Shown here one piece after another: positions 1 through 46,121 of a stretch of DNA of 64,000 nt (positions are counted from its first letter, which is position 1; the number at the start of each line of letters is the position of its first letter). The stretch spans positions 496,001 to 560,000 of the forward strand of contig QPGO01000014.1 of the NCBI GenBank assembly GCA_008632985.1, read 5' to 3'. The stretch is from Psammoneis japonica. Lineage: Eukaryota. The notes under the pieces are model-generated. The model was not told where the DNA came from. It made no database searches and was given only the letters and a program-made list of their open reading frames with translations. Position numbers and translations under genes: made by a program.

Positions 1-1
1 T

Positions 2-3000: not shown

Positions 3001-3263
3001 TGGACAGAGGTAAAGAACGAAAGGAGAGGCTGGGTCCTGAAAATGGGAGTCGGGTGCAGTGCTCGTCATTTGACCGAAGGAGCGAAGTGTGTCACGAGAG
3101 TCGCTTTGCCGAAGCAGGTGGGTCGGTGGAAGTTTGTTGCATGGGAAGGTCTTGTGGGACACTTTGCAATGTGGAAGACTGTAAATGCAAGCCACACTCT
3201 GACACTACATCAGTTGCATGCAGTGATGGTTCCAATGCCTTTGTTTGTGGACATGGCCATTGA
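2..3263 (+). CDS. Subtilisin-like serine protease (S8), copy 1, 5' end outside window. Domains: catalytic C-half, DGICC-type beta module, Pro/Thr linker, FG-GAP-like beta-propeller, Cys-rich C-terminus. Two apparent -1 frameshifts (~1773, ~1940).
   Basis: AGNGG oxyanion motif, DQVEIAAPGVDI and catalytic GTSMAAPFVSG. Repeated FG.SVALSGDG..LAVGA blades. Colinear with copy 2 (16236-19556), which shows the missing single bases. Confidence 0.85.
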
Positions 3264-3622
3264 TCTGTCAGCATTCTTTCTTAAACTCACAGGACAAGAA
3301 GCTGCGCAAGCATTGATCGACCAGCACATGGTGGGGAATGGTGTAACTCAATCACTTTTTATCAGAGGAAGCACATGCATTGTCAATTTTAACAACAAAA
3401 TAAGTTTTCTTTGACACTTGTTCTCAACACGTCAGCACTCGTTCAATGCTGTTGTTCAGCCACAAATGCAAGGGATGCCACCACCCCATGACTAAATTGT
3501 GGGGATCTAGAATGCATGGCAGTTCCCAGGTTTCACACACTTTCTCAACTTTCAACCAAAGCAAAACTGGTGCACATGCACACTTTTCGAGTGCCCCATG
3601 GAGTGAAAAACAAGTTCCTCAT

Positions 3623-4226
3623 GCTTCTTGTGGACACAACTTGTGGTCTGAGATCCACTGAATGAGAAGTGTCAGAATTGGTGGGGTGGGGCCACAGACC
3701 TGCCTCTCTGCAGCAAGCAAGCTGAAGGTGTTTTTTGCCACACTGCTCACACACACACTCACAACTGCTGCAGATTGGATTGGCATGTTTTGTGCAGCTC
3801 TTGTTTTGTGGCAAGCAATGGTGTGTGATTTTTTGGGCATGTGCTGTGGCACAGGAGTCCAGGAGGCTCTTTCCAGGGCTCTTCCTGGCTGCCCCAGCTG
3901 CACAAAGAAAAGCACATTCTGTGGCCCTTTGCAGCTTCTTGTGGACACAACTTGTGGTCTGAGATCCACTGAATGAGAAGTGCCAGAATTGGTGGGGTGG
4001 GGGCACAGACCTGCCTCTCTGCAGCAAGCAAGCTGAAGGTTTTTTTGCCACACTGCTCACACACACTCACAGCTGCTGCAGATTGGATTGGCATGTTTTG
4101 TGGCAAGCAATGGTGTGTAATTCATTGGGCACGTGCTGTGGTGCAGGAGTCCAGGAGGCTCTTTCCAGGGCTCTTCCTGGCTGCCCCAGCTGCACAAGGA
4201 AAAGCACATTCTGTGGCCCTTTGCAA
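3623..4226. repeat. Tandem duplication, ~311-bp unit x2, in hypermutated 3' flank; related sequence at ~19830-20450 and ~23620-24150
   Basis: gcttcttgtggacacaacttgtggtctgagatccactgaatgagaagtg starts at both 3623 and 3934. Confidence 0.85.
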
Positions 4227-4551
4227 CTTGTTGCCTCTCTCCTCTTGCTCCTGACAAGGGCAGCCACTTGCAGCACTCCCCCCCCTGCCCCCACCTCTGC
4301 AAGCTGCTGGTCAGATCAAAGCTGCCTGAGACCCTGCACTTTTCTGACAAAACATGCCATCTGCAGAAAATCTTGTTGCTTTTTTTGTCTCAAAACAGGC
4401 AAAGAAGGGCAGACAAGCAGCTTCATTTTTTGCCAACCACAAGGCACCACACAGCTGCACCAGCACCCAGCCAAGCCAATGTGCTGTCCTGCCAAACACA
4501 AACACACCTGTGCCTGTCAACTGGTGTGGGTGACACATTGTCATGGTGCCC

Positions 4552-5798
4552 ATGGCAGGTGAAGCACTCAATTGTGGAGTGAATGGTGTCATGCAAACTG
4601 AAAAGAGGGGAGACGCTCTCCACTGCCAGTTGACATTTCAACCATCAGCCACAATCCTCCCAGTTGTCAGCTGAGTGCACCAAGTTGGAAAGCCAATTTG
4701 CTTGTTGGAGCTTCAATGGCAACAAGTCAAGCAAACAGTTTTGAGCACTGTGATTTGCAATGGAAGATGCCTTCTGCTGCTGTGTGCATTGTCCACAGGA
4801 CAGGAGAAGCACCTGAACTGTGTCAAATCCAGGTGCCAATCCACTGAACACCACCAACCAAAATGTGATGCTGCAAAGTGCTGCCAACCATGGCATTTAG
4901 CATCACAGGTGCTGAAACCACTGCCAGTGAACCCCATCATAGACAATGCTCTGGGAGGTGAGGTGTGGCTGGCCTGCACAGCACAGCTGGAAGCACTGCC
5001 AGCCACAGCTGCTGCCACCTTTGCCACAAGGTGCACAAGGCCTGCCAGGAGGGCCAGCCAAGCCAGGCACACTGCTGCTGCTGCCACTGGTGATCATTTG
5101 CAATTGCCGAGGCAATTGTGCCATGGCTGCCAATGATCTGCATCAAAGAAACTGTGCTGACATCATGCAAGATTTTGTGTGCCCATTCAAGAGCAGTCAT
5201 GACACAACCCAGCTGCTCTTTGAGACCACACATGTTCAGTGCTGGGGCATGATTTGCCTGTGGCACTCATGCAGGCAGCACACACTGCTGCACAGCAGCC
5301 GCAAGCAGCCCACAATGTTTGTGTGGTTCAGGTCTCACACCAAACAACTGGGCACCCCACTGCAGTGGTGGGGCCACCACAAACATGGGATGGCAACATG
5401 AGCACCATCAGCGGGGATCTCACACAATGGGCCAGCATTGTCTTGCCGTGGTGCCTGAGGGACTGCACGAACATGTGGCAGCCAAAACACAGTGCACAGA
5501 AGATGCAGGAAACTGTGGTGGTCCCACTTGACTTTGTCAACCTGTTTCTTGCAGCACTGCTTGCTCCCAAGCAAGTGTTCACCAGACTGCATCATGCCAT
5601 GATGGCAGTGAATCATGCAGCAGCATGCAGGTCCATGTTGGATTTTCTGAAAGCAGCATGTTGTGTGACAGCACATTGGATCAGCACATGTCAGTGGTGC
5701 TGCACAACTGGCCCACTGTGCCCCAACTGTGAAATGAAGCACTGGCTTGCTTCTTCAATGCTGTGTGGTGCAGCAAGATCTTCCCAATGGGGCAGGTC

Positions 5799-5830
<32 letters not shown>

Positions 5831-8421
5831 CTGCATCAGTGTGAGCTGGTGTGGCAGCCACCACAGAGAGCTTGATGACAGAGCAACAATGCCAGCAATG
5901 GTTGTGTGCCATTGCCAGACAGCAAGCAGCAGTGTTCAGCAAGACCCCAGCTGAAGTGCATGAGGAGTTTGGGGTGGCTGAGCTCATGTGGATCTGTCAA
6001 GTGCGTGATCAGGCAAATCTCTCACAGCCCCCCCTTCCAAAGAGTGATCAACTCAGCACAGTTCAGAACTTCATTGACAAGTGATGCCAGGCACATTCAG
6101 AGTGCTTCAATGTGCCAGTGTCTGTTGACAACCTCATTGGTGAGCTCATCACACATGTCACAGCATGATCAGCAGATTTGCGCAGCAGGTGAAGGGGTGC
6201 CATTGCTCTCCTGGACACAGGTGGAGCAAATCACATGTCATGTGCTGCAACATGATGCATCGGCAGATTTGTCCAGGTGAAGGGGGGCCATTGCTCATGA
6301 ACACATGTGCCTTGGAAGTGCCCAGTGATGCCATGGCAGCTGCCACCACTCAAGCTGTGCAGCAATCATTTGATGGATTGCACACAGAGTGCTCTCAGTG
6401 GTGGTTGGAGCACCACACCCCCTTGTCCAATGGCTTGTCAATGTGAGGCAGCATGCCATGGACACACATGCCAAAGACTTGGCAATGCCATGAACGAGTG
6501 CAGATGTGCTGCTGGCTTCAGAGCCAAGAACACTCACACATCCTTGTGCCATTTAGCACACCACTGCCAATTGTCTCAGAGGCTGCAAAAGGAGCATGCA
6601 CCACTGGCAAAATGGACATGTCATTGACTGTCAAAAAGTCACCCACACTTGTGCAGATTGGTGCACCTGCACCATCCATGACCAGCAAGGGCAGCACAAT
6701 GCTGGGAGACAATGCCACTGTCTGCAATGAACACTGTGATGAATGGTTTGAGGAACTGCAAAGCTGACCCAGTGTGCACTCTCATGCAATCAAGCTCTGT
6801 TGCATCAAAGAAAACACAGCTCTCCCCGCTGACTTGAAAGCAGCACAGCAGCAGTGCCTGCCATGCCATTGCAAAAGGGTGCAGCGCAACACCAACTGTG
6901 GCTCTCATGCTGACCAGCCACCACAACAACTGCAGCAAGCAGGGCCAATTGAGCTTGCTGGAGTGGGAAAAGCAGCAGCACTGGATGACCAAACAGGCCA
7001 TTGGCACAATGGCCCTGCGGCACAGTTTGGGGACTGGAGGCCAAGAGCTGCTGGTGCCTGCATGGAGAAAATCTGCACATCCACTGCTGCCATGAGTGCA
7101 GGCTAGAAAGCAACAACAGGCCCACCCACCATGTGTGAACAGGAGACAATGCAGCATCCACAATCACCAACAAACCAGGCAAGCAAATTTCATGTGATGA
7201 CATTGTCCTTTGCTCAAGACACCTCAGTTGCTTGTTGCATGTGTGCCTGGTGGGGGCAATTGGGGGGCATTAGAGAATGCACAGAGCTGCCCTGCACACC
7301 ACCTGCTCACAAGCCAGAAGTGTCGTGGGGTGCAACCTCATTGCAAGCATGGTGCAGTCATGTGCTGCTGCCAATTGTTTTGGCATCATGCATGAGCACA
7401 AGCCTCTCAATTGGGCTGGTGACACTGGCACCCTGCTTTGTCAATGCAAGGGATCAATGACCACCATTGGGCCTGCTGCAAAATTGCTGCAGTGCCAAGG
7501 ACAGCACCAATGCTGTGCCATCAGCACCTCTTGCTGTGCGCTGCTTGCCAGGCTCTCTTTCAATGCTGCTGATGATGATGCAGGTGTTTGTCTCCACCAA
7601 AATGCCTGGCACACCATGTCATGTCTCTTCTGCAGGCATCTCAGGCTTCCCCCGCACCTCCGTTCTGGCTGTCAGCCCTGGCAACCTGGGGTTTGCACAC
7701 CCTGCTGATGTTTGACATTTTTGAGTGGTTGGAGCCATGGTGCTTCTTCTTTGCACCCATGTTGAGTGCTGGCAGGGTGGAGAACTCTTTGTCCTCCTTC
7801 ACCTCAGCACCAATGTTCCCCTTGCCCCTGCCAACTCACAAGTTGGCCTCATGCCCAGCACAACCCTCCAGGTGGGCCTGCCCTCCTGCCAACTGCACTG
7901 GTCTGCTCACACTGCAATGCAGGCGGGGGCACTGCTGGCACAGCCAGCATGCTGCCCCTGATTGGAAGCAGAAAGGGACCAACTGCACCTCCTGGCAAAG
8001 TGCTCCCATCCCTGCAAGTCCTTGTCTGTTTGTCACCTGGATTGGTGCACACCGCAAGAGGTCGTGGCAGGCAAAGCAGCACTGGCCACTCTGGCCTCAT
8101 GTGGGCTGACAAGGAATTGTGACCCATTGCCAGTTGATGACTCATCTGCAGCTCCCATCATCAGCTGAGTGTGCAAAGTTGGCAAAAAGTGCTGCTGCTT
8201 TGCTTGTTTTTCAAATGAGCTTTGACAGCAGCAACCCAGGCACCAGACAGCTTTGATGAGTGCTCTCCCATCTTTCTCTTTCCCTGTGGCCCTGTGCTGA
8301 TCTTCCAGCTTGGGAATGTGGCTGGAGAGGGACCAGCTGTGCCTGGCAAAGTCCTCCCATCCCCACAAGTCCTTGTCTATTCTTTTTGCTTGTTGCCTGG
8401 ATTCGTGCACCGCAAGAGGTC
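4552..8421 (+). mobile_element. Degenerate, internally deleted Ngaro-like tyrosine-recombinase retrotransposon related to 33926-40300
   Basis: Translated fragments align with the element at 33926-40300: gag (VVGPPQTWDG vs VVGPAEPWDG; LDFLKAACC vs LDFLRVACC; ARQQAA), RNase H (GTLLCQCKGSMTTIGPAAKLL..NAADDD) and YR C-terminus (SPGNLGF..GAMVLL). Split repeats: A1 ~4552-4700, B1 ~7970-8062, A2 ~8063-8200, B2 ~8325-8421. Left boundary approximate. Confidence 0.75.
5798..5831 (+). repeat. (CAA)11 microsatellite
   Basis: Read directly from sequence. Confidence 0.95.
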
Positions 8422-9440
8422 AAATGAGCAAAACAACGCCAGTTGCCCACTGTCCCATTTGATTCCCAAGTCAGCAAAGGCATCGAAACATTGCAAAAAA
8501 AGAACAGAAACCCAAATAATTTACGGTGCACACGTGCTGCAGAACCACAGCTGAAAAAATCGTAGTTTTTGCGGCGCAGCCGCGTTTTCATGCAAAAGCG
8601 CGAAAACCCATGGGCCTTTTTGCGTGGCGCAGCTGTGCAGAAGCATGAAAAGCACGCATGCCTTGTGCGGCTGCTTCTAAAATCCAAAACAAACCTTGGC
8701 ATAACTGGCATGTTGTTGACAATGACAAACTTTGTGTTGCTGCCACCAAACACACAACAAGAGTTAAAACTTTGGACATTGCAGATCGACAGACACTGCC
8801 ATGAATTTTTAACTGCATCCAATGCCAGAAGATCCAGTTGTTTGCTGTCCAAAAAGATGTCATGCAAATCAACAACGGCTGCCACCGATCCATCACTCGC
8901 CGATGGCGCGATGCTCGAGAAGGGGGAATCTCATGCGCTGATTGTCAGAATGCTGTGAAGGCTGCCCTCCAATCAACTGTTTGTGACATCAATCACCAAG
9001 AATCAAGTGCAGGAGCCATTCAGTGCATGTTTGCCGTGCACAATGGTGGTTTGGCAGGAATGTTTGGGAAAGGGAAAGCAATGTCTGTGAGACAAACATT
9101 GTGAAAAAAGTTCAAACAAAGCAACATTGCCCAAGACTTGGATCTTACCTTTTTTGGCAGGCGGTGTGGAAATCAGCAATGGCATTTTGTTTCCCGTGGA
9201 AGCTGTGACACGAGGAATTCTCTTGCAAACAAGCCGCCCCAAAATCAAGCTGCACTCCCTGACAAGTTGCTGTCAAAGCTTTGCCTCTCCCTTGAAAGAT
9301 TCCATTGCCAAAGAGCCACCAAGAACAGGTCAAGAGAAACTCACAACGAAGGAAACGAATGAAAGAGACAATGCACCGGCCCCACCAACAACAATGTCGA
9401 CGCAACACCACACCCACAAGAACAAGCGCAAACAAAAAGA

Positions 9441-9860: not shown

Positions 9861-10143
9861 TTTGTTCTTCCAAAACTCTTAAGAGAGAAAAAGCCATTGA
9901 CTTGGAGATCCCAAACCACGAATGCTGCAGCCGACAGAGTGAGCTGCAAGACCGTGATGGAGCAACTCCACGCCCCATGAACAACACCATTCCATTGTAA
10001 CCAAGCGATTTCAATTTTCGAACAAGCGCTCGTGTGATTGTCATTTTTACTGTCCAACCAACTGCACGCTTTAATTGTGTTGTCACGGTCTGATCTGCAA
10101 AACAACACGGACGGCCTTTGGTGAGAGACATGGAAATGGACAC

Positions 10144-10384
10144 TGACAGAAAATGAAGATGACTGGGTGGAAGAAAACAACAACTCCTTGCTGCTGTCTA
10201 AATGGCAGATGAGTCTCCGTGCAGAGACCATTGCAGGAGCCAAAAGACTGGTGTCGTGATGTTGGCACTGCTGTTGTTGTTCTTGTGAGCCTGTGGCTCA
10301 AAAGCAAACTACATCGCGATGCACGCAGAACTAAGAGCACACATGATTGTGTGTGACAACCAAAATCTTGTTCAAATCCTGTCA
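10144..10384 (-). repeat. 3' LTR of Copia element (241 bp)
   Basis: tgacagaaaatgaag...caaatcctgtca, direct repeat of 14509-14750. Confidence 0.95.
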
Positions 10385-13300
10385 CTCCCCAGTTTGCTTG
10401 AGGGGTCAACAGCAACAGATTCAAGGTCAGATTGGTTGAAAGCCTCAGGATCAAAGTTCCAAAACACCAGAGGATGAAGGAGGTTCCAGATTTGGGAGTG
10501 ACCCGAATGCTTGCTGAGGATGTCAGCCGGGTTGCGGGAGCCTTCGATGAAATGAAACTTGAGGAAACCGGAGGCAATCGCCTCGAGCACATGATGGAAC
10601 GAGAGGGCGGTGTGTTGCTTGTGTAACTTGGAGTGCGGGATGGCAGCACTGTCCACAACCGACTTGTTGTCCCCAAACATGTAACATGTTTCACGAGTGG
10701 GAACGCCAAGGTGACGTAAAGTGATGCGCAGATCAAGAGACACTGCTCCGGAATGGACACTGTTGATGGGCATGTCTGTGAGGTGTCCATCGGCAACAAG
10801 CCTTGCTTTGTGCCATCCGTCATGTTTGACATCACAGACGAGATGCACCCGGATCTTCTTGTGTCCTGGTGGAGCACTGGAATCATTGTGGTGTCCGCAG
10901 TCATGGAAGACCTCGTGCTCATCAAGCTGAGTCATCTCAAGGTCTGTTGCGTCTCCCCACTTGCGGTTGCCGTTGCGCTCATCAAGGGCCATGGCATGCT
11001 TGTAGTCCCGTGGCACTTCATGCCCGTGCTTGCATCGTGGCACAGTGCAAAAGGAGCATGACTTGGCTTGGTTGGCCATGCGGAGTGGCTTCTTCTGGCA
11101 AAGGGCTGTCTTGCAAAAACGTCTCCATCCTTCAGTTTCTAGAAGGCCGTGCTCACGCGCACAGACAGCACAGGTGATGGGGTCATCCTTGGCAATGATG
11201 GCAAGGGGTTCGGACGTGATCTCCCCATTCTCCCATTCAAGCATGACGTTGTAGCTTGAGCGTTTCCAAGAGGGATCATGGGGTCGCAATGGTCCTTCGT
11301 GCGATGCGATGCATCGGAACTTCCAGAGGGTGGTGTCCTCATCTTCTTGCTCAATGTGGTGCATGATGTCATTGCAGGCTGGGACTTCCTCACATTCGTC
11401 ATTGTTGACGGAGCAAATGAACTTGACCAGTTCAGGATTGTCTCCAATTTTCCAGTCGTGGTCCTCAACGGCTTTGACGATGCGGGCTCTGTGGCGTTGT
11501 CCATCCTCTTGTGGCTTCATGAGGAAGGTGCATCCTGTGACATCCTCGGGGTCAAGGATCGGCATTTTGGGCATCCTGATCACCTCCCCATCTGGTGAAT
11601 CTGGTGAATCCGCGGAGTCGTTGCGGGATTTAATGACAGGTTCAGCAGATTTCTCATCAGGAGGATCAAGACGCAGGTTTGGAGCAGACGGATCACGGGC
11701 GGAGTGCACGTTGGAACGGCAGAGAATCTTCTGAGTGTCGTCAGAAAGAATCTTGAACGTCATTTGGTGACCAACGTGCTTGGCGATGCCAACAAAGTGA
11801 CCACACAGTTCACGGGATTCGGACGGCCAGTCGGAATCATCCAGGTGGCAGTGCACGGTTTCCCACCATTGAAAGCGGAGGAGCGGGCTGATGTCGGGAG
11901 TGGAGCCAGATGGCACCTCAGTGGGGGCACGCTCCACTGGTTGATGATCGTCGATGCCTTGGACGTCAACCTGGCAACCAGTGCAGACAATGACATGAAC
12001 ATCATCACCGGCGATGCCACCGTTTGCACCACGATCCACTGGAGCACCTTTGTGAGTTGACTTGTGGGTCAAGGCAGAGCAGACGACATTGTGGTTGTTG
12101 ACGCGACGGCATTTGTGGCCGTTGATCTCAATGTCAGTGTCACTGGGCTTCGCGTCGGAGTGAACAGAAGGTGCAGAGCCGGGCAGTTTTTTGCCAGAAT
12201 GGGCAGAGGGAGGCCGTTCAGGTGCCAGGAGACATTGCAAGTCCCCGGGTGGCAGGGGCTTGCACCTGGTGAGATGAGCCAGAATGGGGTTAGCATCGGC
12301 TGCAGCGTCGGATTGTGCGAAGGCTGATGCAAGATCGTGAGTGTTGGCGGACAAGTTGACATTGCCATTGCTGCCAATGCAGAGGTCGTGCAGGTTGACC
12401 GCCGTCAAGTCATGGCAGTTGCCGGTGTGGGCGGTGCGCGAGCCAAGAATGATGGCCTTGGTGGACTGGGGCAAGGTGTCCCAAATGCGCTGATGGTCCG
12501 GTGGGATGCGATGCCATTGTTCCTTGGGTGAGGGAATTGCCACAAGTTTGCACAGCATGAGCTTGGATGACGTCAACATCACTGTCAATGTCGAAGAATG
12601 CATCGTCGTCAGGGTCGTCAGGGACTGGGTCATGTTTGTAGATGGCACGGCGCGGAGTGCAAGGAGCCGTCTTGGGGGCAAACGTGCTGTCGCACTGTGC
12701 TGCAGCAGAAAGCAGGAGTCCACAGCACTCTTCGTAAGAGAGCCCCTTTCCATTCTGCATGCGGAACTGATCGGCCTGATTCTTCACCAAACGGAGTTCT
12801 TTGACAGGATGAATGGCATTCTCAAGCATGACACGTTGCTGGCCAGCAGAGAAATGGTCCGCACCCGGGACAAGAGCTTCGTGCTTGCGAAGCTGGTCCT
12901 GCCAGTGAAGTGTGAAGGCATGAGTGGATCCCTTCCAGGTGCCATCACCAAGGCGAGCAGTGGTGAGGTGCGCGAGAAGGGTCGAGGACTCCAGGGATGC
13001 GCGAGTGGAAGAAAGGGCGCACTTGGAGAGGTCACGATGCACCGCTTGAGCATCAGAGGAGCCGACATGTTGACAAACAAGTGCCTTGCCTTTGTCATTC
13101 TGCAAGATCCGTTCGAACACTGTGAACATGTGCTTCTGTTGTTCGTCAAACAGGGCCTTGTCCTCAGCTGTAGAGGGCTTGTGCGTTGGATCGAGAATGC
13201 GTGCAATGTCTTGGGAGCGGGCCTGTGCGATGATGGAGGTGTGCCACGTGTGCCACTGTTTGTTGGACTTGAGAAGCGCGAAGGCAAGTGGGTCACGTTT

Positions 13301-13732
13301 GATGCCTTGTTTAAAGTCACGCACGGGATCACGTGGTTTGGGTGGCAATGAGCTGGGAGTGGGAGCAGATGGTGCTGCACCCATGGAGAGGGACGCCACA
13401 TGCTCAGGACTAAGACGACAGTTGGTGAACTCCTCTTGTGTGAACAATTGAGGGTCATTGCCAACATCCGCGCTGCTGCGCGCTTTCACCGTGTGCAGGC
13501 TAATCAGTGCAGCTGTCTGTGCTTTGTAACCACATGGCAAGTGCATTTGATTGGTGCTGTTGTTGTGCACAAGGGCATCCAATTGCATCGGAGTAAAAGT
13601 GAAAAGGTCCTGATGTGAGTCGGTTCCATCAGTGTTGAGGGTGGAGCACAATGGACTGTCTGTGGCTTGACTCAGAACAGTGCCCAGAACATGCTCGAGG
13701 CCATCGATTTGTTGTTGCCTGGTGAGAACCAT
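10372..13732 (-). pseudogene. Copia gag-pol remnant: frameshifted; integrase core deleted near 11935, RT core deleted near 10740
   Basis: ORFs 12410-13732 (gag) and 10372-12753 (pol pieces). RT motif VHSGAVSL is joined directly to RNase H DLRITLRHLG. Confidence 0.85.
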
Positions 13733-14508: not shown

Positions 14509-14750
14509 TGACAGAAAATGAAGATGACTGGGTGGAAAAAACAATGACTCCTTGCTGCTGTCTAAAAAGCAGATGAGTCTCCGTGCAGAGACCGTCACAG
14601 GAGCCGAAAGACTGGTGTCATGATGTCGGCACTGCTGTCATCATTCTTGTGAGCCTGTGGCTCGAAAGCAAACTGCATCGTGCGATGCGCACGGAACTAA
14701 GAGCACACACAATTATGTGTGACAACTAAAATCTTGTTCAAATCCTGTCA
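14509..14750 (-). repeat. 5' LTR of Copia element (242 bp)
   Basis: Direct repeat of 10144-10384. Confidence 0.95.
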
Positions 14751-30095: not shown

Positions 30096-32084
30096 GACTT
30101 GTCAGAACAATGATTTGACATGCGCAAGGTCGCAGCGGAGCCGCCGAACACCATGGTGTTTTGATGCTGTCAATAGAATGTTCAGCTTCGTGCACAAACA
30201 AGTTGATTGAAATTGGAGATGTGGAGTCATTCCTGGTTAGTTATCAACAATTTTTGAGGAGCACATGTTGAATGAATGTGTCATTTCTCGCAGAATTGCA
30301 GACGTCCAATTTCACACTCTCGCAGTCGTGAAAAAATCGGGTGTAATTTTGGGGTGTAAATTCACGCGATGCGCATTTTTACACCCCCAAATTACACCCC
30401 AAATTACACCCCATTTTCCACGACTGCGACGGGTCTCAGCCTGCTCACATCCTGCATCCCACCCATGCATCATGTCAGCAGCAGCTGTTGACAAGGACAC
30501 AAACACAGCTGGGTTCTTGCAATTTAATGACCAAGTTGAAATCACATCCCCAGGAGTTGACAAAGTCTCCTTGGCAAAGCTGAGTGGTGGAAGAGCTTCT
30601 GGAATGACAGCTGGAGTGACACATCAATGGCTGCTCTTTTTGTTTTGGGGATTGCTGCAGTGCTCTTCTCACACTTCCAGGAATGCTCCAATCATCAAAC
30701 AAGGGCTGTTCTCATTGAATGGCATTGAACAATGATCTCATCAAATGCAGTGACAAGGTTGGTCATTTGTTGAGGAAGAACAGATGCATTGCCAGTGACA
30801 TCTCTCCAAGGCTGCCATCCGATGGTGTGCATGGAGGATGCAATCATGATCCAAGTTGTGTTCCACTGCCGGCAGGTGTGCACAAACTGCATTTGCCTGC
30901 AGAGACTTGTTTTTTTGTCTCAAGCTCACAGCTGATGAATGGGGAGGAGAAACATCTTGGACAGTGAAGAAATCCAGCGACAATGTTGTTGGCTCAGGGA
31001 GTGGTTGCCACAGCTTTGCATCCCACACCAAAAATCTGTGCCTGGCTCCCAATGTTTGCACATTCGCTGTTCACCATTTGGAGAGTGATGGAATTTGTTG
31101 CACATGTGGTGAAGGAGGACCCCACTCCACAACTTGGGAAGGCATGTCAATTCAAATAGTGGGGCATTTTGTGGACTTGGAAGAGACATCATTTGGCACA
31201 TTGCTCAGCTTGGGGCCTGAGGTGTCTCCAGATGGCACCCCCTCTGCATTGAACACTGGCTGCAAAGACAATGCCAGCTGGCAATGCAGTGCCAGAAAGG
31301 GGGAAGAAAAAATGCAAGCACCTCAAGGTGAATCCATTTGCAAGATGCAGCTTGTTGGGATGGAACCAAATGGGGCAGCTGACATCTGGTTGCAACTCTT
31401 GTCTGCTTTCATGTGTTTTTTGTGTCAAAGTGTGCCAGATGAGACATCATCAGTGACTGTGATCATTGAGAACCAGATGCCACCAAGCCCATCAACTGTT
31501 GCACCAACACCTTGGCCTGCACCCCTTTCTCCAAATTGTTGCCTCCACTGTTGATCCAACATCAGTGCCAACAGCCCAGCCTTCACCAAAACCCACCTTG
31601 AATCCATCACACATCCCAACTCCAGCACCCACCCGTTCACCTGCAGGGACCCTGTCACATCCACCCATGGCACGTCCAACGGTGACACCAACAGTGAATC
31701 CAACAAGCATGCAAACAACTCCAGCCCCAATGGTGGCAACCACCTGACTGCCAGTGGCAAGGTTGTCATTGAGTGCTGCTGTTCCTGCAGAAACATGGGA
31801 AGTGGCCAACATGATTTGTGCAGTGTGGCACGTGCCAGGGACAGCAGATCTGCTCACCCTGGCAAAATCATCAATTGCAACAGCTTTCTTTGTTGCAAGG
31901 GACTTTGCAGCTTGTGCAGACAAAACCTTTCTTGGCTCTGGCAGCTGCAATCATTTGTGTTGTCAGGGTGTGAGTGCGCATGCAAGCAATCCTTCATTGA
32001 GTTGCCAAGTGCAAGAGCTTGCTGCAATTGTGTTCAGGCCTGTTTGCAGGCACACTTTGTGAGAAAAGACAAAGCTCCATTTAA

Positions 32085-32486
32085 GGGGGGTCATTTGATG
32101 CTGTTTCAAGCTCAAATTTAGCCCAACAGCTCATGATTTGCATGATTTTTCCTGAATTTTAGCTGTGCTTCACACCATGGTGAAAACATCAAGCTGCAAG
32201 TCTGTGACAGAGGTGGTCCATCTGTCAACTGTCATTTGTTTGATGTTCATTGCACATCAAAAAAAGATCACACACACACATCAAGTGTTTGAGGATGGAC
32301 CACTGTGTTTTGGAGAAATGTCGACATTGCCATCATCATCATGTTTTGATCATGGCACCTGATGTTCTTTTTTTGTGCATGATTGGGGGTGAATGCAAAC
32401 AATTTTTTGTGTTCAAAAACAAACACCACAAAAATCCTCATTCAAGTGCCATGGCAATTCCAGGATGAACATGGGGACGACCCCCC
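32085..32486. mobile_element. Non-autonomous TTAA-targeting element with GG...CC termini (Kolobok-like), first of a tandem pair
   Basis: TTAA-GGGGGGTCAT ... ACGACCCCCC-TCAA; absent from the paralog at ~21360. Confidence 0.7.
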
Positions 32487-32490
32487 TCAA

Positions 32491-32996
32491 GGATGGATCT
32501 ACATGCTGTGGTCTAATTTAAAACCGCTTGCATTTCACACACTTCAATGTGTTGTTTTGACCTGCCTCAGAGAACCCCCAAGCACTTGTGCATTTATCAA
32601 GCTCTTCTCAGGGCTGTTGGACCTGTGTGAGAGCTGAACATTTGAAGCTTCAAGTGCCACTTGTTAGCCTGTGCCCTGCTGCCAGGTTGGAAAAACCACT
32701 GATTGTTGCTAAAATTGGGTTTCTCATGGGAGATGAACCATGACTTTCTGGGAACATCTGATGGGTGGCATTTGACTGGCCACACACAGGTCCACAGTCA
32801 ACAAGGCAACAAAAAGTTGCGCATGGTCACAACCATTGTCCATGCATTCCATGATGTCTTTGAAGCAGGCAAAGTTCAACCTTTTGCCAAAATTTCATTT
32901 CAGGCAAACACACACATTTGGTGTGATGGATCTGGGTCATTTGTCATTAAAAAATTGTGAGCTCCAAAAAAAAAACTGCTGCACGTGGGTCCATCC
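32491..32996. mobile_element. Second Kolobok-like non-autonomous element sharing the central T(T/C)AA site
   Basis: TCAA-GGATGGATCTACATGC ... GCACGTGGGTCCATCC-TTCA; 16-bp TIR with 3 mismatches. Confidence 0.7.
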
Positions 32997-33925
32997 TTCA
33001 ATCAAAAAATGTCGGGTTGCATTTTGTGATGGAATGCAAGCTTGCATGGAAATGGACTTTAAAGGTGCTGGTCCCATTGACATGTGCTGCACTGGTCAGA
33101 CTCAGACTTGCCGCAAGTTTGGAGCTGGGGGGAACAAACTCAGAGGCTGAGTGAAGGAAAAGACAGTCTCTGCAGGGTGGGTGCTGAAGATGGCAGCAGG
33201 GCAGAGCACAACAGTGGAGCTCAAGTTTGTGACAGAGGCACTTTTGCTCTTGAGCCAGTGGGCATGTTGAAGTGTGCCATGAAGGTCCATTGTGCCACTT
33301 GCTTTGCAGTGGGCAGGAATGCAGCTCAAACCTCACAAGTGTTCCGTGCAATGACAATTTTGGTGCCTGCACGTGCAGCACACAGAATGACTTCTGCTTT
33401 TCAGCCTGTTGACCCCATCCAGTTTCAGACACCTGCAGCACTTGCCATGAACCAGAAGGACTTGGTGGATTGCTGCCAAAGGCCATGATCTGCTGTCCCA
33501 AATTTTGAATTGCATCTTCTTTGGCAGATGTGTCATTGACGGAAGGCCACGAGATCTTTCTCTTTCCACATTTGAAGTCGCCATCTTTTTTGGCAGAAGG
33601 GCATTTGTCATTTGTGGGCCAACCAGCACCCAAGAGCATCAGACACCTTTGCGTTGTGCACATGGGTTTGCACATTGTTTTTCCTCAACGTAAATTGCAA
33701 AAGTGGCACTCGATTGTTTGCTCCTGTCACTTGCTCTCGCACTTGCTCAAGATTTTCCGTCTGGTCAATTTTCTTTTGTTCGACTGGGAATTTGTCAGAG
33801 TCACATGTGCGGTGGCACAGAACTTGCATTTCCAATCGCACAGTCTCAAGCTTGTTTCAACATTGCACAAAAGAGCTTCATCGTTTTGCTGCGATTGATG
33901 TTTTCTGTTTTCATCCGTCGTTTTT

Positions 33926-34421
33926 GCGGCTCACGCCACCCGTCTTGTTCCTTCTCCTGCGGCTCTCTAGTGCTGTCTAGAGATCTTCTGATGATGGACT
34001 GGAATGGCTTCACCAGCGGATGCGCAAGCCTCATTCCCAAAAACCCAAGCTGGAACGGCAGGGCCAGAGGGCGGGAGAGGTGGGAGCGTTAAAAACCATC
34101 TAGCGGCTTCTTGCTCTTTGTTGCTCTTCGGAAGAATGAGTGAAGCAAACGAGAAAAGAGCAGAAAAATCCGTCATTTGCTCGCCAAGTTCGCGCAAGCA
34201 CGTTCAAATTTGAATTCAAACGGTTTGCATGACCCAACGGTCAAATGCGGGTCATTTGCCTCGTCGCACTACACAAGGTGGGCGGCTCACGCCGCCCGTC
34301 TTGTTCCTTCTCCTGCGGCTCTCTAGTGCCATCTAGAGATCTTCTGATGATGGACTGGAATGGCTTTGCCAGCGGATGCGCAAGCCTCATTCCCAAAAAC
34401 CCAAGCTGGAATGGCAGGGCC
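33926..34421 (-). repeat. Split direct repeats B2 (33926-34065), A2 (34085-34283), B1 (34282-34421)
   Basis: Direct sequence comparison. Confidence 0.95.
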
Positions 34422-34491
34422 TTCCAGCGCCACCTGTGGTGCCGTGCACTTTTGGGAGGGTGGGTGGGTTGAGGCTGGAGGGCTGTGGTGA

Positions 34492-35503
34492 TCAGGCGTC
34501 TTGAGGATTTTGAGGGACGTCAGCATTGGGGTGGAGGACGAAGTCGCCACCGGCGAGCATGTCGCGAGCGAAGTTGCGCATGACTGGTTCTGCTTGCAAG
34601 TGCAGGTGTCGCAACATTTTGTCAGATCGCCAGCGGCCTAAGAGCCGAATGAGATCGGTGTCGACGCGGGCACAAAGGAGGGCCATTGCTCCGGCGGCAC
34701 GAAGACACCGAGCGGCAACATCTCGGGTGGTGAAGCCGAGATTAGCCGGACCAAGAGCAGTGACAGCATTGCGCAGCATGCTGGTGATGTCGGCCGGGGA
34801 CACACGACGCCAGGTGTTGTTTTGAAAGTAAACACCAAGGGGTGTGTCAGGGAGCGCACCGTGGGTGCGCAAGTGTTGGACACGGCGGATGAGGGCTTGA
34901 ACCGGGCACAGGTGGGGGTGACCGGAAAGACCAAGCCCTAGAACTTCGCCTCGCACTCCATTTTTCTGGGTGGCAAAGGTGAGAGTGGCAAAGTTTGCTG
35001 TGTCAAGGTGTGCAAGTGGAACTTGCATGGTGTCAAGGTAAGCACCACCAGACACAAGCCGGACATCGGCGAGACGAAAGGGGGTGGTGTCTGATGGTGT
35101 TGCGGTGTACTCGCCAGGCCGTAACAAGAAGAAAAAGGCAAGTACAATCATTTCAGCAACAGCTTGTGTGCCCGGGGGCATTGCTGAGGGCTGCGGCAGT
35201 CATAATCCATTGCAGCACTGCAATCGGGACCGGTTTTACGCGGTCTGGGGGTGGATCCTGCTTCTTGTAAAAACGGACTTGCCGGGTGAGGCGGAAATCC
35301 ATTGTGCCTTGGGATGTGTGGCGTGGATCCGGGGACCCCATTGCAGCGAACGTTTGGCCAACCGAACGTACGGCATCTTCAGCGGTTCTTCCACGGACGG
35401 GATTGCCCATCGGCGCGAGGACTCCTGTGCGGTGTCGGTGCAAGAAGACTTGGAGGAAGACAACAGGGTCGTCAACGTCTTCGAGGAGTGGGTCGATGGC
35501 CAA
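34492..35503 (-). pseudogene. Tyrosine recombinase of the Ngaro-like element; frameshift ~35175, presumed catalytic Tyr replaced by His
   Basis: FFFLLRPGEY, R-x-LRAAGA and LLGRWRSD.MLR(H)L motifs; N-terminal part in overlapping frame 35153-35503. Confidence 0.9.
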
Positions 35504-37620
35504 AGAGGAGCAGAACTCTCGCCATTTGTCCCAATGGGCATTGGTGGCGGAGCCTCTGGAAGAGGCAACGCCATGCTGGACTGCGTGTTGAGCAGCATTG
35601 AGATCACGTATGAACTCAGTTCTGGTGGAGGCGTCCAGAGACGCCAGGAGAGTTTCTGCGGATAGTGCAAATTAAAGTGACGCAAAAATTCACGGTTGGA
35701 CAAAGACTGTAGTCGTGAGGCATCGTCAGCGGCAGTGTTGAGGCATCCAGGTAGGCAGTCATGCAACCCCAAGCAGCGATGGTAGCGTTGGTGGTAGGAT
35801 TGGTGTCGAAGCAACCGGGAGGCGGGTTTGACGGCAGTGGTGGCACCTTTACGTTGCCAGTGCATGGTGCCTGAATTGTCGGTGCGTGAAAGACCAGTGC
35901 GTTCACGGATGTCAAAACAGTCGGCGGCGCCGAAGGACTGAATGACACTGCCGGCAAGTTCCAGGTCTGTGTTGGTGATGGGACCGCGCGGGTTGGAGAA
36001 AGTGGAGAGTTGACTGCTGACACTTTTGGGAAAGGGCAGTCGCCACACTGCAGGACCCACATCTCTCTGTTGACAGCGTCCGCAATTGCCGAAACGGAGA
36101 GTGGCTGCTCTGGGTGCTGTGGCACTGGTTGGCAGGAGGACGCCGCCTGCGCCGTGACCTGCAGCATCATGACAGCCGGTGAGTGTTGGTTTGAGTGGAA
36201 CCAATTCTTGAATGCGAACGGGTCGGGCGTCTAGGGTAGATTCTAGATCCCGAAAATCATCTAGTGCGCAGTGCGCATTGGCGGAGATCCGGACCCGTGA
36301 GTCCGGAGTGGTGTGTCGGAGATTTTCTTGGAGCACTGAGAAGAGACCCCGGGAGCCGGGGACAGCAATGCTCAGAGAGCGCAGCTCTCCCAGTAATTTC
36401 TGACAATCGGAGACGGTGGCACGTTTACGTGTGCGGGGGAAATCCTGGTGCAGCGTTGTGTGAAGTCGGGCACGCCGTCGGGGCGTGAGCCGGATGGTCA
36501 TAGCGCGAGTGTCTATGAGCCAACCCAGGACTTCTTTCTGCGTGGACCATGTGGCATCACCCTGGCGGAGCTTCTTGATGGAGACGGGCTCTTTGCGGGT
36601 GGCTGGGTCATGTGCATCGAGTGGGCGGAAAATGTCATCGAGAACATGCAGCATCACACGGTGAACGTTATGCCGGGCTTGTTTCGAACCTTGCGCAGCG
36701 CCGAGGAAGTCGTCTACATAGATGTCGATGTATTGCAAGCGGCGGCGCCGACGCGGTCGGAGGTGTGGGTCGGGCGCATTGGGAATGGGCACGGCCTGGG
36801 AAGCTGCGGCAACTTGTGGTGGTTGGTGCTTCGGCGGGCGGCTTTCTAAAAGCGATTCCAGCGGATGTGGCGGTGCTTGGACGTTGCGCACCAAATCCAA
36901 ATTGGCGACATCGGCAACAGTCTCCGTTGCTGTGCAGAACAATGGCGGGGAGTTGGCCCAGCCCATGGGCAAGCGTGTTGGGATTGCAACCAATGGTGGT
37001 TCGCCCGGTTGGTTCGGGAACACTGCACCAAGTGTAGGAGCCTGTTCTGGCGCAACTTGCATGCGGCAATGGCCATCAGCCAAGTCGATCTTCATGAGAT
37101 AGACCGTGCCTTTTCTGGGATCGGCGAGCAGGATACGGCGTAGAAGGCGGTCGAAGGCACGTCCAAATTGCATGGCTTCCGTTGCAGCGTTGGGTTGCGT
37201 GGAGGGATTTAGCCCACAATGGGCACAGTCTACAATGGGGTGGGGACGTCAACCATGTTGAGGCACCACGCCAATTGGGCTCAGGCGAAGACCGGGGGTG
37301 TGACGCACTTCCTCGTAAGGGATGACAACCCAAAAGCCCTTCTCGACCATGTCGGCCATGTCTTGGCGCAGAAACTCGATGTGTTCGTAGGCGGATTTGT
37401 GTGGACCCCTGGAGACACTGGCGTCTAGCTCAGCACACGTCCATGGTGCATCGGCGGCGGTGATGGGGGCACCTCAGTGCTTGCAAGTGCTTGGCAGTCG
37501 GTGAGCTGGGTGTGGCTTGACTCGGTGGAGTGGACCCCAATCGCCTCTGCCGCTGCGATGACGCAACAAGTAACTGAGACCTTTACGACGCAGTAACGCA
37601 GCATCAGTTCGCATGTGCTC
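35236..37620 (-). pseudogene. Reverse transcriptase / RNase H of the Ngaro-like element; two in-frame TGA stops upstream of 37173
   Basis: LRLSPIGVVPQ, KIDLADG, LPMGWANSPPLFC, YVDDF, DAAGHGAGG, ITNTDLELAG, DNS, NTAADDASR. Confidence 0.92.
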
Positions 37621-37794
37621 ACCTGGTTTGTCATTGCAGATTGCGGCAGCAACATCCTGTCCACGGGCAGTGGGGCGGGTGCGCTGCCTCTTGAAATTCT
37701 CCACAGTCGGGGGTTGTGGACGCGATGGCGCGTCAACCATCGTGGATGAAGGCTCTTGGCTCCAAGTCCCCGAACTTGGGCCATTGCCGAAGAC

Positions 37795-40084
37795 CTGTTC
37801 GGTCTTCCAGTTCTCCTCACCCCAGGTGAGAAGGGTGGCCTGTTCGGCGTCTGTGTGGTCATTGCGATGATCACAGGACGAGCCACAGTTGGTGTCACAT
37901 TGCCCTTTGTAATGGCAGGGAAAACAATGGGGACGACCTTGGGCATCTTTGGGAAGTTCGATGTTGTCCCTTGCGCACAGGTTTTTGACATCGCGTGACC
38001 TGACGTTGGGGCGGTCACGAAGCGTGGCGAAGCGGTCATCATAAGAAGGGTTGCGGACTACGCTGTTGCTCCCTGCGGCTTGACTGATGGGGGCCATGTT
38101 GGCAGGCTGGTGTTGAGTTGCCGGGGCCGGTGCGGCTCCCAGTGCAGAACTGGGGCTGGCAGCTTGCATGTTAGCGGGCAGGTGCGGGCGCCAGTGCATG
38201 ATTCCTTTTGCCGCTTCAAACACAACGTTCAATGGTGAGAATGGAAGCGGGTGAAGGGAGGCTTCTTGAGCCTTGAACCAATGGCGGACTTCAATCTGCG
38301 CGCAGCGTTGAAAATCCACGGGAAGGGTTGGGTGCCAAGCAGCCTGTGCTGCCAACTCGTTGGCACACCGGTCCATGTCTTGACGTTGACGGGTGAGCCA
38401 CTGGACAACTGGATGGTGGGCTCCAAGTGAGGCAGAAAGCACCAGGTGGCATCCATCGCAGGACTGCTGAGCGGCTTGCATTGTCGTCACCACGAGCGCC
38501 TTGTCTGGTGCTTCCAGGATCTGCATGTCTTGGAGGGACGGGGCCACAGCGCCGCCATGAATGTGCATGTACATGGCCTTGTGACAGGCGATCTGCTCGG
38601 CACTGTCTGGCACAGTGATCCCAAACTGGAATGGAGTGATGCCTTGGGTTGGCTCGTCTTGATTGTGACCAGCAAAATCCAGCTGTACGAGCTTGGTGAC
38701 AAGGCCAACCGTGACTGGTGCGTCAAAATGAACGGCCATTGCCTGGCGTTGCTCGTCAATTGCATTTTGGATGACTGCCAGGCGGCCTGTCTTAGGCGCT
38801 GCGGCAAGGGTGGCCCACACAGGCGGCAGTGCTGTCTCGTTGAGGGCGTGGCACCAATTCACAAGCTTGGTGACACCAAAAGGTCCCCAGAACTCATTGG
38901 GAACCTTGCCCCGGGCAGCCGCTTGTTGACGTGCGGTGGCGTCAAGTCGGAGTTGTCGTTGTTCAGTGGTGAGCTCTTCAATGGCCTGCACAACCGGCTG
39001 GAAGTGCTGCGCGGTGGGTGGTGCCCGACCCAGTCTCCCGGGGATGTCCCGCTCCACCTTGGCATCAAAAAATTGAATGAGGGCTTCGTTGGGGGGACGC
39101 ATCATGACAGGCCAAGGTCGCGCCACAACAGATGCCACTTGGTTGTTGGCAGTGGCACAGCAGGCGACGCGCAAGAAGTCGAGCAGTGGTCGGATGGCAG
39201 CCACCTTGTCAGCTGCCGCAGCGGCGCCGTGCACGCGCTGGCAGGCTTGTTTGGGATGCAAAGGGTGTGCCAACAAGAGTGGCACGAACTCAAATGGCAC
39301 GTGCATTGCATGTCGTGTCCACACGACCTCCGAGTTTGGTGCATCCTCAGCCAGATGCGGATGCAGGCCTTCCGCATTGTTGGTGACATGCTCCAGGAGT
39401 GCGGCATGGGTCGGTGCCCTAGTCCCCTGCTGTGCCAAGTTGAATGAGTCGCCCCCGAATTCGACCAGGGTAAACTGTCCACGGGTTGGGTCACCCGCTG
39501 TTGCGCACGTCTCACCGTCCCAAGGTTCGGCAGGTCCAACTACGGTCATCGGATAAGTGGTGACGCGGTGTGGGACTTGGATCTGTCCTTCGTCCGCTGC
39601 GCCGTCCTCTCGGCAGTGCGTGATGACGGCCATCGGCTGATCGTGACTTGACGCCGCTGCAACTCGCCCATGGAGCACTCCGGGGTTGCATCTCGAAGGT
39701 CCCTGAACCGGAACCGCAAAATCTGGCATCAACTCGTCGTGCACCCCCCGGTGTGGGTTGTCAGCGGCTGTGAGGTAAAAATCCCGATGCGTCGCAATGA
39801 CCGGCGGCACCGCCGGTGCGGCTTGTGCACCCGGTGGCGGTGGCGGCATGATGGCTCCTGCTGCTTGCGGTGCCACCGGAGGCACCGGGACTTGTGGAGG
39901 AGGAGGTGACGGAGCATTTTGGGCTGCCGCGGCGGCTGCTGCAGCTCCTCTTTGTGGTGGAGCAGGGTCGTTGGCATTTTGGGCGTTCTGGGCCCCTTGT
40001 CCTGCGTTTTGCTGCTGTTGCGCGTCCACAATGGACTTGCCAAAGGTTCTTCCTGCGAACAACAGGGAGCTGCGGCGGAGGCAT
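37795..40084 (-). pseudogene. Gag-like ORF1 of the Ngaro-like element
   Basis: Long Pro/Ala/Gln-rich ORF ending in a Cys/His knuckle (CFPCHYKGQCDTNC..DH..DH). ATG at 40084 is out of frame with the main ORF. Confidence 0.8.
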
Positions 40085-40100
40085 CCTGCGCCGCGTCGAC

Positions 40101-40300
40101 AGCGTTAAAAACTGTCTAGCGGCTTCTTGCTCTTTGTTGCTCTTCGGAAGAATGAGTGAAGCAAACGAGAAAAAGAGCAGAAAAAACCGTTGTTTGCTCG
40201 CCAAGTTCGCGCAAGCACGTTCAAATTTGAATTCAAACGGTTTGTATGACCCAACGGTCAAATGTGGGTCATTTGCCTCGTCGCACTACACAAGGTGGGC
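40101..40300 (-). repeat. 5' terminal repeat A1 of the Ngaro-like element
   Basis: Matches 34085-34283. Confidence 0.95.
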
Positions 40301-45950: not shown

Positions 45951-46121
45951 CCCTGTCTGGGCCTGCCTCAGCAGTGCTGGAGCTCCTTTATTTCAGAGCA
46001 CGCACTCACAACAAAACACATGCGGTCAATTGGGTCGAATGAATCGAGAATGATGACGTCGTGCGATGTTTTGATCTGTGTCGAAAAAACAAAATTCCAA
46101 AACAACACAACATCTTTGACA

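Follow-up and report, generated by a model that had tools for sequence, protein, structure and literature searches.

A 64,000-nucleotide stretch of the genome of the diatom Psammoneis japonica (GenBank assembly GCA_008632985.1, contig QPGO01000014.1, positions 496,001 to 560,000 of the forward strand; hereafter the window, with coordinates counted from its first letter) consists of ordinary genes alternating with blocks in which the dinucleotides TpA and CpG have been almost completely erased in favour of TpG and CpA. With a probability of about 0.8 these blocks are the real products of a locally targeted hypermutation with two arms, one directed at TpA and one at CpG, which acts on diatom chromosomal DNA after insertion or duplication. 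The changes have a definite direction and dinucleotide specificity, fall on both strands, arise after insertion at a rate far above background, stop at sharp borders and obey rules of sequence context.

The TpA arm would consist of A:T to G:C transitions which occur only at TpA and yield TpG or CpA, depending on the strand hit, without strand-coordinated clusters; it would proceed close to saturation, leaving only the tetranucleotide YTAR (TTAA, TTAG/CTAA and CTAG) relatively immune. The CpG arm would turn the C of CpG into T, favouring about five-fold a cytosine preceded by A or T, and would act later or less widely than the TpA arm. Together the two would turn the self-complementary pyrimidine-purine (YR) steps into TG and CA, leave the G+C content unchanged and eliminate all TAA and TAG stop codons and all tyrosine codons. 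Which DNA is hit would depend on the position of the block in transposon-rich, presumably silenced chromatin.

Erased blocks and their borders

Observed-to-expected ratios (o/e) of CG, TA, TG and CA were profiled in sliding 1-kb windows and 100-bp tracks across the window. The affected blocks lie at about 3.5-8.5, 19.9-24.4, 30.4-33.6, 43.1-45.9, 55.0-56.8 and 60.3-64.0 kb and alternate with normal genes; in them the o/e is 0.02-0.25 for CG, 0-0.13 for TA and 1.5-2.3 for TG/CA, and in gene stretches it is 0.7-1.4 for CG and 0.35-0.73 for TA. Counts were pooled within block limits chosen by hand from these profiles, with base composition as the expectation. The fully affected blocks (19,506 bp) contain 55 TA where 1265 are expected (o/e 0.043) and 111 CG where 1174 are expected (0.095), compared with 759 TA (0.53) and 1226 CG (0.97) in 21,503 bp of gene stretches. 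TG and CA stand at 1.895 and 1.896 in the blocks and at 1.18 and 1.22 in the genes, and the G+C content is 0.491 and 0.485, respectively. An earlier reading of this DNA, made from the letters alone (the sequence-only reading), had described CG and TA as nearly absent from the blocks and normal in the genes, and had named the composition-corrected comparison with genes as a check; the pooled counts agree with it on both points. The sum of YR steps is conserved at 242 per kb in genes, 252 in partially affected blocks and 245 in fully affected ones, and in the mass balance of full blocks against genes a loss of 83.8 TA+CG per kb is matched by a gain of 87.1 TG+CA per kb.

A third class of DNA, 17,303 bp at 8.7-15.0, 25.4-30.4 and 34.1-40.1 kb, contains only 163 TA (o/e 0.167) while retaining 854 CG (0.72). 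The sequence-only reading had assigned both losses to the same domains, which is correct for the full blocks where both dinucleotides are gone, but not for these 17 kb, in which TA is erased with 72% of the expected CG in place. It had also called the region at 34-40 kb partly affected; that region belongs to this third class. TpA is thus erased before CpG, or in DNA to which the erasure of CpG does not extend.

The borders of the blocks are sharp, extending over no more than 100-300 bp in the 100-bp tracks, and at several of them the loss of TA reaches slightly further than that of CG. Their sharpness is also apparent at 40391-40500, a fully unmutated, CpG-dense and promoter-like stretch of low-complexity TCGC/GATCG units (19 CG but 4 TG+CA per 100 bp) which lies just upstream of a gene for an RCC1-repeat protein and 100 bp beyond the terminal repeat of a retroelement. 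The reverse order is observed in the last 300-400 bp of two gene copies which adjoin erased blocks (3100-3524 and 19400-19827), where CG is down to 0-2 per 100 bp with TA still at 2-4 per 100 bp.

Clustering was scored with cut-offs taken from a preprint on TpA hypermutation in the chlorarachniophyte Bigelowiella natans (Mettrop et al., bioRxiv 10.64898/2026.01.13.699255), namely at least three successive 1-kb windows with a TpA o/e of at most 0.43 and a CpA+TpG o/e of at least 1.52, using our own o/e in place of the exact Rho formula of the preprint. Consecutive windows pass at 3001-10000, 20001-33000, 43001-46000 and 60001-64000.

The first fully erased block (3525..8500; CG o/e 0.03-0.24, TG/CA 1.6-2.3) is relic DNA within which 300 bp are duplicated in tandem at 3623-4233, and no Pfam family is found in its open reading frames (ORFs). 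The second (19830..24449; CG o/e 0.03-0.13, TA 0.03-0.08) is present at single-copy depth and is partly related to 31454-33874, within the fully erased relic repeats at 31453..33925 which were delimited by the o/e profile, self-comparison and TG<->CA swaps. Three further full blocks are seen in the profiles: one between the RCC1 gene and an amino-acid transporter gene (42700..46000), one with a tandem duplication, 55278-55761 / 55761-56240, recovered by self-comparison (54800..56850), and one that runs past the end of the window (60250..64000). A total of 169 stop-free ORFs of at least 90 amino acids, on both strands, overlap the five scanned intervals (3400-15100, 19800-34100, 42600-46000, 54800-56900 and 60200-64000; about 35.5 kb together with short flanks of genes). 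So many long open frames occur in relic DNA because TAA and TAG have been erased. A Pfam scan of 150 of the 169, leaving aside 19 that lie in genes, in a pseudogene or at block edges, found no family at the curated cut-off and two sub-threshold matches at chance level.

Direction, timing and context of the mutations

The direction of change can be read from a gene for a subtilase with FG-GAP repeats (Pfam Peptidase_S8 and FG-GAP_2), which is present in the window as two tandem copies on the plus strand and as a third, erased copy. Copy A (1..3524; TA o/e 0.45-0.71, CG 0.84-0.96) is unmutated and serves as control and polarising paralog, and copy B (15303..19827; TA o/e 0.5-0.65, CG 0.78-1.03) is likewise unmutated and is the source-like paralog of the pseudogene. 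According to self-comparison the pseudogene, also on the plus strand, is one copy of gene positions 15303-17296 in two parts, 24450..25394 (copy of 15303-16255) and 30435..31452 (copy of 16258-17296), which are separated by an inserted high-copy repeat of about 5 kb (25395..30434; TA o/e 0.10-0.22, CG 0.43-0.69, about half kept).

The second part was polarised in a three-way alignment with both genes at sites where these agree. Of 30 TA it keeps one (16 became TG and 10 CA) and of 39 CG none (18 TG, 16 CA), while TG is kept at 53 of 61 sites and CA at 50 of 56. Comparison of the first part with the gene gives 3 of 32 TA kept (16 TG, 13 CA) and 2 of 51 CG (24 CA, 19 TG). Over both parts the 62 TA have become 32 TG and 23 CA, with four kept and three otherwise changed, and the CG have become 37 TG and 40 CA, so that the outcome is balanced between the strands. 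The A of TpA in the second part is changed at 16 of 28 sites (15 of them A>G) and the T at 9 of 24 (7 T>C), compared with 4-9% at non-target sites (A 7/159, five of these A>G; C 9/130; G 15/162; T 15/165); a 30-bp deletion and small indels are also present. The example on which the sequence-only reading had based its direction, a pair of 33-mers, is located exactly at 16261 and 30442 in gene and pseudogene. Its claims that TA and CG were converted to TG and CA by mutation in place, and that a second A:T to G:C process confined to TpA accompanies CpG decay, are both upheld, the former also by the copia element and the TG<->CA swaps described below; in pseudogene and copia element alike the polarised spectrum runs from TA to TG/CA and not from TG/CA to TA.

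Copies A and B are 90% identical over 3497 aligned bases, lie 12 kb apart and differ by only three TG<->CA swaps. TA in A stands opposite TG/CA in B 20 times and the reverse is found 22 times, about 4% of 544 TG/CA steps; at this ordinary transition level, leakage of the hypermutation into the genes is ruled out, and the sparing of adjacent genes described by the sequence-only reading is seen both here and in the sharp borders. Non-target divergence is similar for all copies (67/937 between pseudogene and copy B, 218/3497 between A and B), and age alone therefore fails to explain why one of them is erased. Since two paralogs are spared and the third copy is saturated, it is the position of the block and not duplication as such that decides. 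Targeting would follow this position, presumably by way of chromatin state, and we infer that the targeted state is heterochromatin. This does not fit the term repeat-targeted, in the sense known from fungi, by which the sequence-only reading had described the process. The neighbouring genes, the two long paralogs and the CpG-dense promoter-like stretch are all spared beside the blocks. Copy B is more frame-broken (ORFs 16380-17075, 17045-17569 and 17404-18945) than copy A, which has a single ORF of 617 amino acids, and may thus be decaying via ordinary mutation without erasure of TA and CG, as a natural control.

An internally deleted Ty1/copia retrotransposon on the minus strand (10143..14750) has lost its TA and kept about two-thirds of its CG. 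It has 128 longer relatives; those among the matches listed carry PF07727, and two are named as Ty1/copia reverse transcriptases in Fistulifera. Tyrosine makes up 3.0-5.3% of 120 listed relatives and 0.4% of the copy in the window, which has 6.6% His and 3.6% Cys; because the outside relatives are so much richer in tyrosine, this composition is derived and not native. In an alignment with the first 25 of the 120 relatives, considering columns with at least 70% agreement, three of 18 conserved Tyr are kept, eight are His (CAY) and six Cys (TGY); 14 of 28 conserved Arg are kept, with six Cys, three His, two Gln and one Trp in their place. Of the other residue classes tallied, 16 of 18 are retained at 69-100%, Ser being lower at 16 of 26. 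A second retroelement on the minus strand, with a reverse transcriptase (33926..40421), has its TA partly erased and its CG intact (o/e 0.8-0.95 in the 1-kb profile). It has 4814 relatives at E<=0.001, of which two of four tested give sub-threshold RVT_1 matches; Pfam finds no family in the six read-through frames of 34085-40300. It may be DIRS-like, to judge from a YVDD motif and a tail that by eye resembles a tyrosine recombinase. Aligned with 30 relatives from P0344-P0399 (at least 600 amino acids and at least 1.5% Tyr; shorter and Tyr-poor rows dropped), it keeps two of seven conserved Tyr (four Cys from TGY, one Arg) and 18 of 22 conserved Arg. Together with the partial blocks this implies that TpA erasure cannot be a by-product of CpG deamination.

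The long terminal repeats (LTRs) of a retrotransposon are identical at insertion. Those of the copia element (10143-10384 and 14508-14750) show 18 difference events over 241 bp, of which five are TG<->CA swaps, eight CG<->TG/CA, three TA<->TG/CA and two other, which places 16 of 18 at target steps. The split direct repeats of the second retroelement (34085-34283 / 40101-40300 and 33926-34065 / 34282-34421; 96% identical) show nine events over 339 bp, four swaps, three CG, one TA and one other, with eight of nine at YR steps. As these pairs have diverged almost only at target steps, the process acts on integrated DNA. A TG<->CA swap, which consists of two adjacent differences, is expected where an ancestral TA or CG has changed separately in each copy. 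Such swaps number 32 in 584 bp between the 19830-24449 block and its relative at 31454-32077, 15 in 356 bp of another relic pair and ten in 478 bp between the tandem units 55278-55761 and 55761-56240.

Within the pseudogene no strand-coordinated clustering of the kind left by APOBEC or a single RIP event is found, the strand labels following one another at random with runs numbering 37 against 37.0 expected and 46 against 41.3 expected. Context does matter to both arms. Of the 55 TA that survive in full blocks 42 are YTAR, as opposed to 119 of 759 in genes (p=4e-21); they comprise 20 TTAA, 19 TTAG/CTAA and three CTAG, and none of the 55 is GTAC, ATAC/GTAT or ATAT. Block by block, YTAR accounts for four of the seven TA left at 3600-8500, nine of 12 at 31000-33600, all ten at 43100-45900 and 11 of 14 at 60400-64000. 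The pseudogene keeps four of 12 YTAR and none of 59 TA in other contexts (p=5e-4). At CpG the strand is chosen by the flanking bases (W, A or T; S, C or G), with 17 TG to 3 CA at WCGS and 3 TG to 15 CA at SCGW in the pseudogene (p=5e-5), and a cytosine with a 5' A or T mutates about five times more often.

Apart from the two tandem subtilase copies, the long and intron-poor ORFs of the window code for the RCC1-repeat protein, a PI-PLC-X-like protein, an acyl-CoA dehydrogenase and the amino-acid transporter. Proteins of Seminavis, Nitzschia, Cylindrotheca, Fragilariopsis and Pseudo-nitzschia share 60-70% identity with the transporter ORF, a match that was taken to place the DNA in a raphid pennate diatom.

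Mechanism and alternative explanations

By analogy, the TpA arm would be of one kind with the TpA hypermutation of B. natans, for which deamination of adenine by an ADAT2-like enzyme is proposed and preferred by the authors, who cite ADAT2 acting on DNA in amphioxus and Trypanosoma (bioRxiv 10.64898/2026.01.13.699255). Our leading guess for the chemistry here, held tentatively and at somewhat less than even odds, is likewise that a deaminase, of the TadA/ADAT2 type or another, converts adenine in DNA to hypoxanthine. Deaminases specific to stramenopiles, in fusion with SAM and Tudor arrays, are on record and are candidates for the enzyme (PMC3239186). The CpG arm would depend on methylation of CpG in transposons, a mark set by DNMT5 in the diatom Phaeodactylum (PMC9998398), with a deamination step that may be spontaneous or enzyme-assisted.

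An unlikely alternative for the TpA arm is enzymatic oxidation of thymine. The base 5-formyluracil (5fU) mispairs with G, and a TET/JBP-type dioxygenase that makes 5-hydroxymethyluracil (5hmU) or 5fU at TpA in silenced DNA would thereby bring about T to C changes. The same class of enzyme could also oxidise 5-methylcytosine (5mC) at CpG and so link the two arms, thymine and 5mC being both 5-methylpyrimidines in a palindromic YR step and both steps being erased in the same blocks; the strand-symmetric outcome fits equally well. A precedent is found in dinoflagellates, in which a TET/JBP enzyme makes 5hmU that sits with 5mC on repeats and silences transposons, replacing T preferentially in TA and TC in C. 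cohnii (PMC11572971). Here, however, TC steps are unaffected, T outside TpA is changed at only 15 of 165 sites and the arms are kinetically separable, and neither 5hmU nor TET/JBP enzymes are reported from diatoms in the literature consulted. A more speculative and still less likely proposal is that a single chromatin-directed system, either a TET/JBP-type oxidase that reads the 5-methylpyrimidine common to the two steps and makes mispairing 5-formylcytosine and 5fU or an ADAT2-type deaminase of dual A and C specificity, hits both 5mCpG and TpA, and that this G+C-neutral, stop-erasing defence is common to stramenopiles and rhizarians and perhaps ancestral to SAR (stramenopiles, alveolates and rhizarians). 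If so, the dual-step system would have escaped notice since, unlike repeat-induced point mutation (RIP), it produces no AT-rich isochores.

A homology-triggered process like RIP, in which duplicates are recognised by pairing and both copies are mutated, would accommodate the presence of transposons, of tandem duplications and of a duplicated gene fragment among the targets; a DNMT4 of unknown function, which is related to and clusters with fungal RID and is found in many diatoms, might perform it (PMC9998398). It is improbable given that copies A and B, two 3.5-kb sequences of 90% identity separated by 12 kb, have escaped mutation and a third copy of similar divergence is saturated, that a large part of the DNA with the strongest erasure shows single-copy depth in a public sequencing run (run X1, below), and that the chemistry is opposed, TA being destroyed here and created by RIP, with G+C unchanged. 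Editing of transposon transcripts or double-stranded RNA by an ADAR-like A-to-I activity, fixed by reverse transcription and reinsertion, would fit in that two of the identified targets are retroelements and that A to G changes have a 5' T neighbour, the 5' U/T being an ADAR preference according to the discussion in the B. natans preprint. It is very improbable, as it predicts changes on the transcribed strand only where the strands are hit about equally (TA to TG 32, to CA 23) and is already contradicted by the LTR pairs that diverged after insertion almost only at target steps. A pseudogene of a host gene, interrupted by a later insertion, is moreover saturated, the ADAR-favoured triplet TAG is among the survivors, and the B. 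natans process strikes single-copy integrated DNA in clonal lines (bioRxiv 10.64898/2026.01.13.699255).

The sequence-only reading had named among its candidates error-prone resynthesis of the Pol-eta type at WA, triggered by T:G mismatches from 5mC deamination. The change from A to G at TA does belong to the WA to WG spectrum of somatic hypermutation, and both arms coincide in the fully erased blocks, but the idea is very improbable. ApA is no hotspot, A outside TpA being changed at 7 of 159 sites, five of these A>G, compared with 16 of 28 for the A of TpA. In 17 kb of the window TA has gone with most CpG still in place, so that the T:G trigger would be missing there, and the second retroelement has lost four of 22 Arg compared with five of seven Tyr. 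Nor would patch repair be expected to nearly saturate one dinucleotide.

That the pattern is an artefact of misread modified bases in heterochromatin, or the native composition of foreign DNA in which TA and CG were scarce from the start, is hardly credible. Strand-specific miscalls of a modified palindromic step would also yield random TG or CA. Run X1, whose platform is not on record, is a public run in which 79% of the words sampled from 15-25 kb occur, and its contigs, at a k-mer depth of 50-65, match 19405-21835, 21823-24647, 30407-32154 and 32378-33927 with 6, 10, 4 and 6 differing letters, 26 in 8560 bases altogether. That an independently built k-mer assembly has the same TA/CG-free state speaks against an error of assembly. 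Forty of 395 differences between window and run were listed, 16 of them between 19827 and 25339, where single-copy erased DNA differs by about 0.3%; nine of these 16 positions (eight events) exchange TA/CG and TG/CA in both directions, including sites that read TA/CG in the window and TG/CA in the run, and one is a CA/TG swap. They look like allelic (heterozygous) or strain variation arising from the same process, and are the one hint that such changes occur de novo. The contigs skip about 25821-30085 of the high-copy repeat, a family at 25.6-30.3 kb with a k-mer depth of 1200-5000 as opposed to 50-65 for unique DNA, and join its ends through short variant linkers; some linkers retain TA/CG where others read CA/TG, so that members of the family are mutated to differing degrees. 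A miscall would likewise leave unexplained the small indels of the pseudogene, its deletion of 30 bp and the changes at 4-9% of its other sites, and the TG<->CA swaps by which copies of one family differ. A native composition is at odds with the tyrosine content of the copia relatives.

Several points weigh against a two-arm hypermutation targeted to silenced blocks. Most of the erased blocks could not be identified as transposons, two being named as retroelements and one as a pseudogene, and that the blocks are silenced is an assumption. Run X1 may share its sample with the assembly, which would make it independent of the assembler though perhaps not of the DNA preparation. From the LTR counts the process would be about 240-fold faster per step than background, with a Poisson range of about 65-2000, and such estimates depend on just two and one background events. 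The CpG arm might be nothing more than methylated CpG decaying spontaneously with time, and its bias for a 5' A or T could mirror which CpGs are methylated rather than a deaminase. Recognition of a single-stranded T-A-Y predicts a skew between the strands that is weak in the data (YTAY 12 TG : 5 CA, RTAR 6 TG : 7 CA; p=0.26); recognition of TpA may instead be of a duplex tetranucleotide.

Spread and relation to known systems

The process is probably not confined to the genome of Psammoneis japonica, to judge from the composition of related proteins. Two of 103 near-length copia matches, both predicted metagenome proteins, have less than 1% Tyr: compared with its nearest relatives P0330 keeps none of 29 Tyr, 19 having become His or Cys, and P0326 keeps five of 32, again with 19 changed to His or Cys and with its Arg mostly kept. 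In the family of the second retroelement, which is natively Tyr-poor (median 1.85%), nine of 150 representatives fall below 1% and only P0434/P0494 and P0466, again metagenome proteins, look clearly mutated; the one named cluster mate, from Thalassiosira oceanica, has a composition ordinary for its family. A metagenome scan with the copia ORF recovered two short loci (1.6 and 1.4 kb) of ordinary TA o/e, 0.9 and 0.5. Gene callers turn the stop-free frames of such blocks into tyrosine-free, His/Cys-rich 'orphan proteins', which are already present in public collections, and repeat or RIP scanners that rely on GC content will miss the blocks because G+C is unchanged. The fingerprint is now sharper, as every TpA context but YTAR is hit, TpA goes before CpG, the rate is roughly 100-1000 times background by the LTR pairs and saturation is possible. 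As some diatoms are genetically tractable, the enzyme could be found by comparative genomics and knock-outs.

Among the established systems, RIP of Neurospora and other ascomycetes changes C to T mainly at CpA, creates TpA and AT-rich DNA, requires duplication and mutates both copies. The diatom process resembles it in that transitions on both strands riddle repeats and inactivate transposons at a rate far above background, and is unlike it in that TpA is destroyed (o/e 0.043), CA is kept at 50 of 56 sites, G+C stands at 0.491 (0.485 in genes) and two paralogs of 90% identity (3497 bp) are spared with only the third copy mutated. Decay of methyl-CpG in the transposons of vertebrates and plants, and the TCG-biased transposon hypermutation of Microbotryum and other basidiomycetes, are not known to have a TpA arm. 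The CpG arm shares with them the restriction of CG to TG/CA changes to repeat blocks and a bias in the 5' flank, here W-C-G, and the signature of methyl-CpG decay is present in the pseudogene, which keeps 0 of 39 and 2 of 51 CG with outcomes of 37 TG and 40 CA. APOBEC enzymes leave strand-coordinated runs of C to T or G to A on retroelement complementary DNA, and ADAR acts on RNA, including double-stranded RNA from repeats. Deamination directed against mobile or foreign nucleic acid would be a trait in common with APOBEC, ADAR and ADAT2 editing, and adenosine deaminases favour a 5' U or T; unlike with APOBEC and ADAR, both strands of resident chromosomal DNA are hit here and no runs occur.

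The closest counterpart is that of B. natans, which answers the remark of the sequence-only reading that it knew of no named system of this kind. In this alga integrated DNA of giant viruses and virophages undergoes hypermutation of TpA to TpG and CpA: of the 231 mutations that two viral inserts acquired in mutation-accumulation lines, 230 were A to G or T to C, all on TpA and at about 1000 times the genome rate, and clusters of TpA-poor, CpA+TpG-rich windows are reported as well as TpA-poor ORFs enriched in reverse transcriptase and DDE domains (bioRxiv 10.64898/2026.01.13.699255). The preprint, as far as its text was available, makes no mention of diatoms or CpG. Full-text literature searches, which included two diatom transposon papers and extended to neither subscription journals nor preprint supplements, found no report of TpA erasure in diatoms, and targeted TpA hypermutation has so far been reported once, in this unrelated alga. 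Both cases have in common transitions of A to G and T to C at TpA that give TpG or CpA according to strand, confinement to particular blocks of foreign or mobile origin, a rate orders of magnitude above background and the clustered 1-kb windows, TpA-poor and CpA+TpG-rich, that are left behind. They differ in that erasure is near-saturated here (TA o/e 0.04, as opposed to 0.45 in the viral insert of B. natans), that it is directed at transposons, relic repeats and the pseudogene of a host gene in a diatom (Stramenopila) and not in a rhizarian, and that a CpG to TpG/CpA arm and a YTAR-resistant context are visible. The evidence from B. natans is experimental, coming from mutation accumulation, whereas that from the diatom is comparative only. 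The present case would extend TpA-directed hypermutation of invading DNA from one chlorarachniophyte to the diatoms, which are major primary producers of the ocean, and adds to this kind of process its saturation, the YTAR rule, the order of the two arms and a G+C-neutral outcome.

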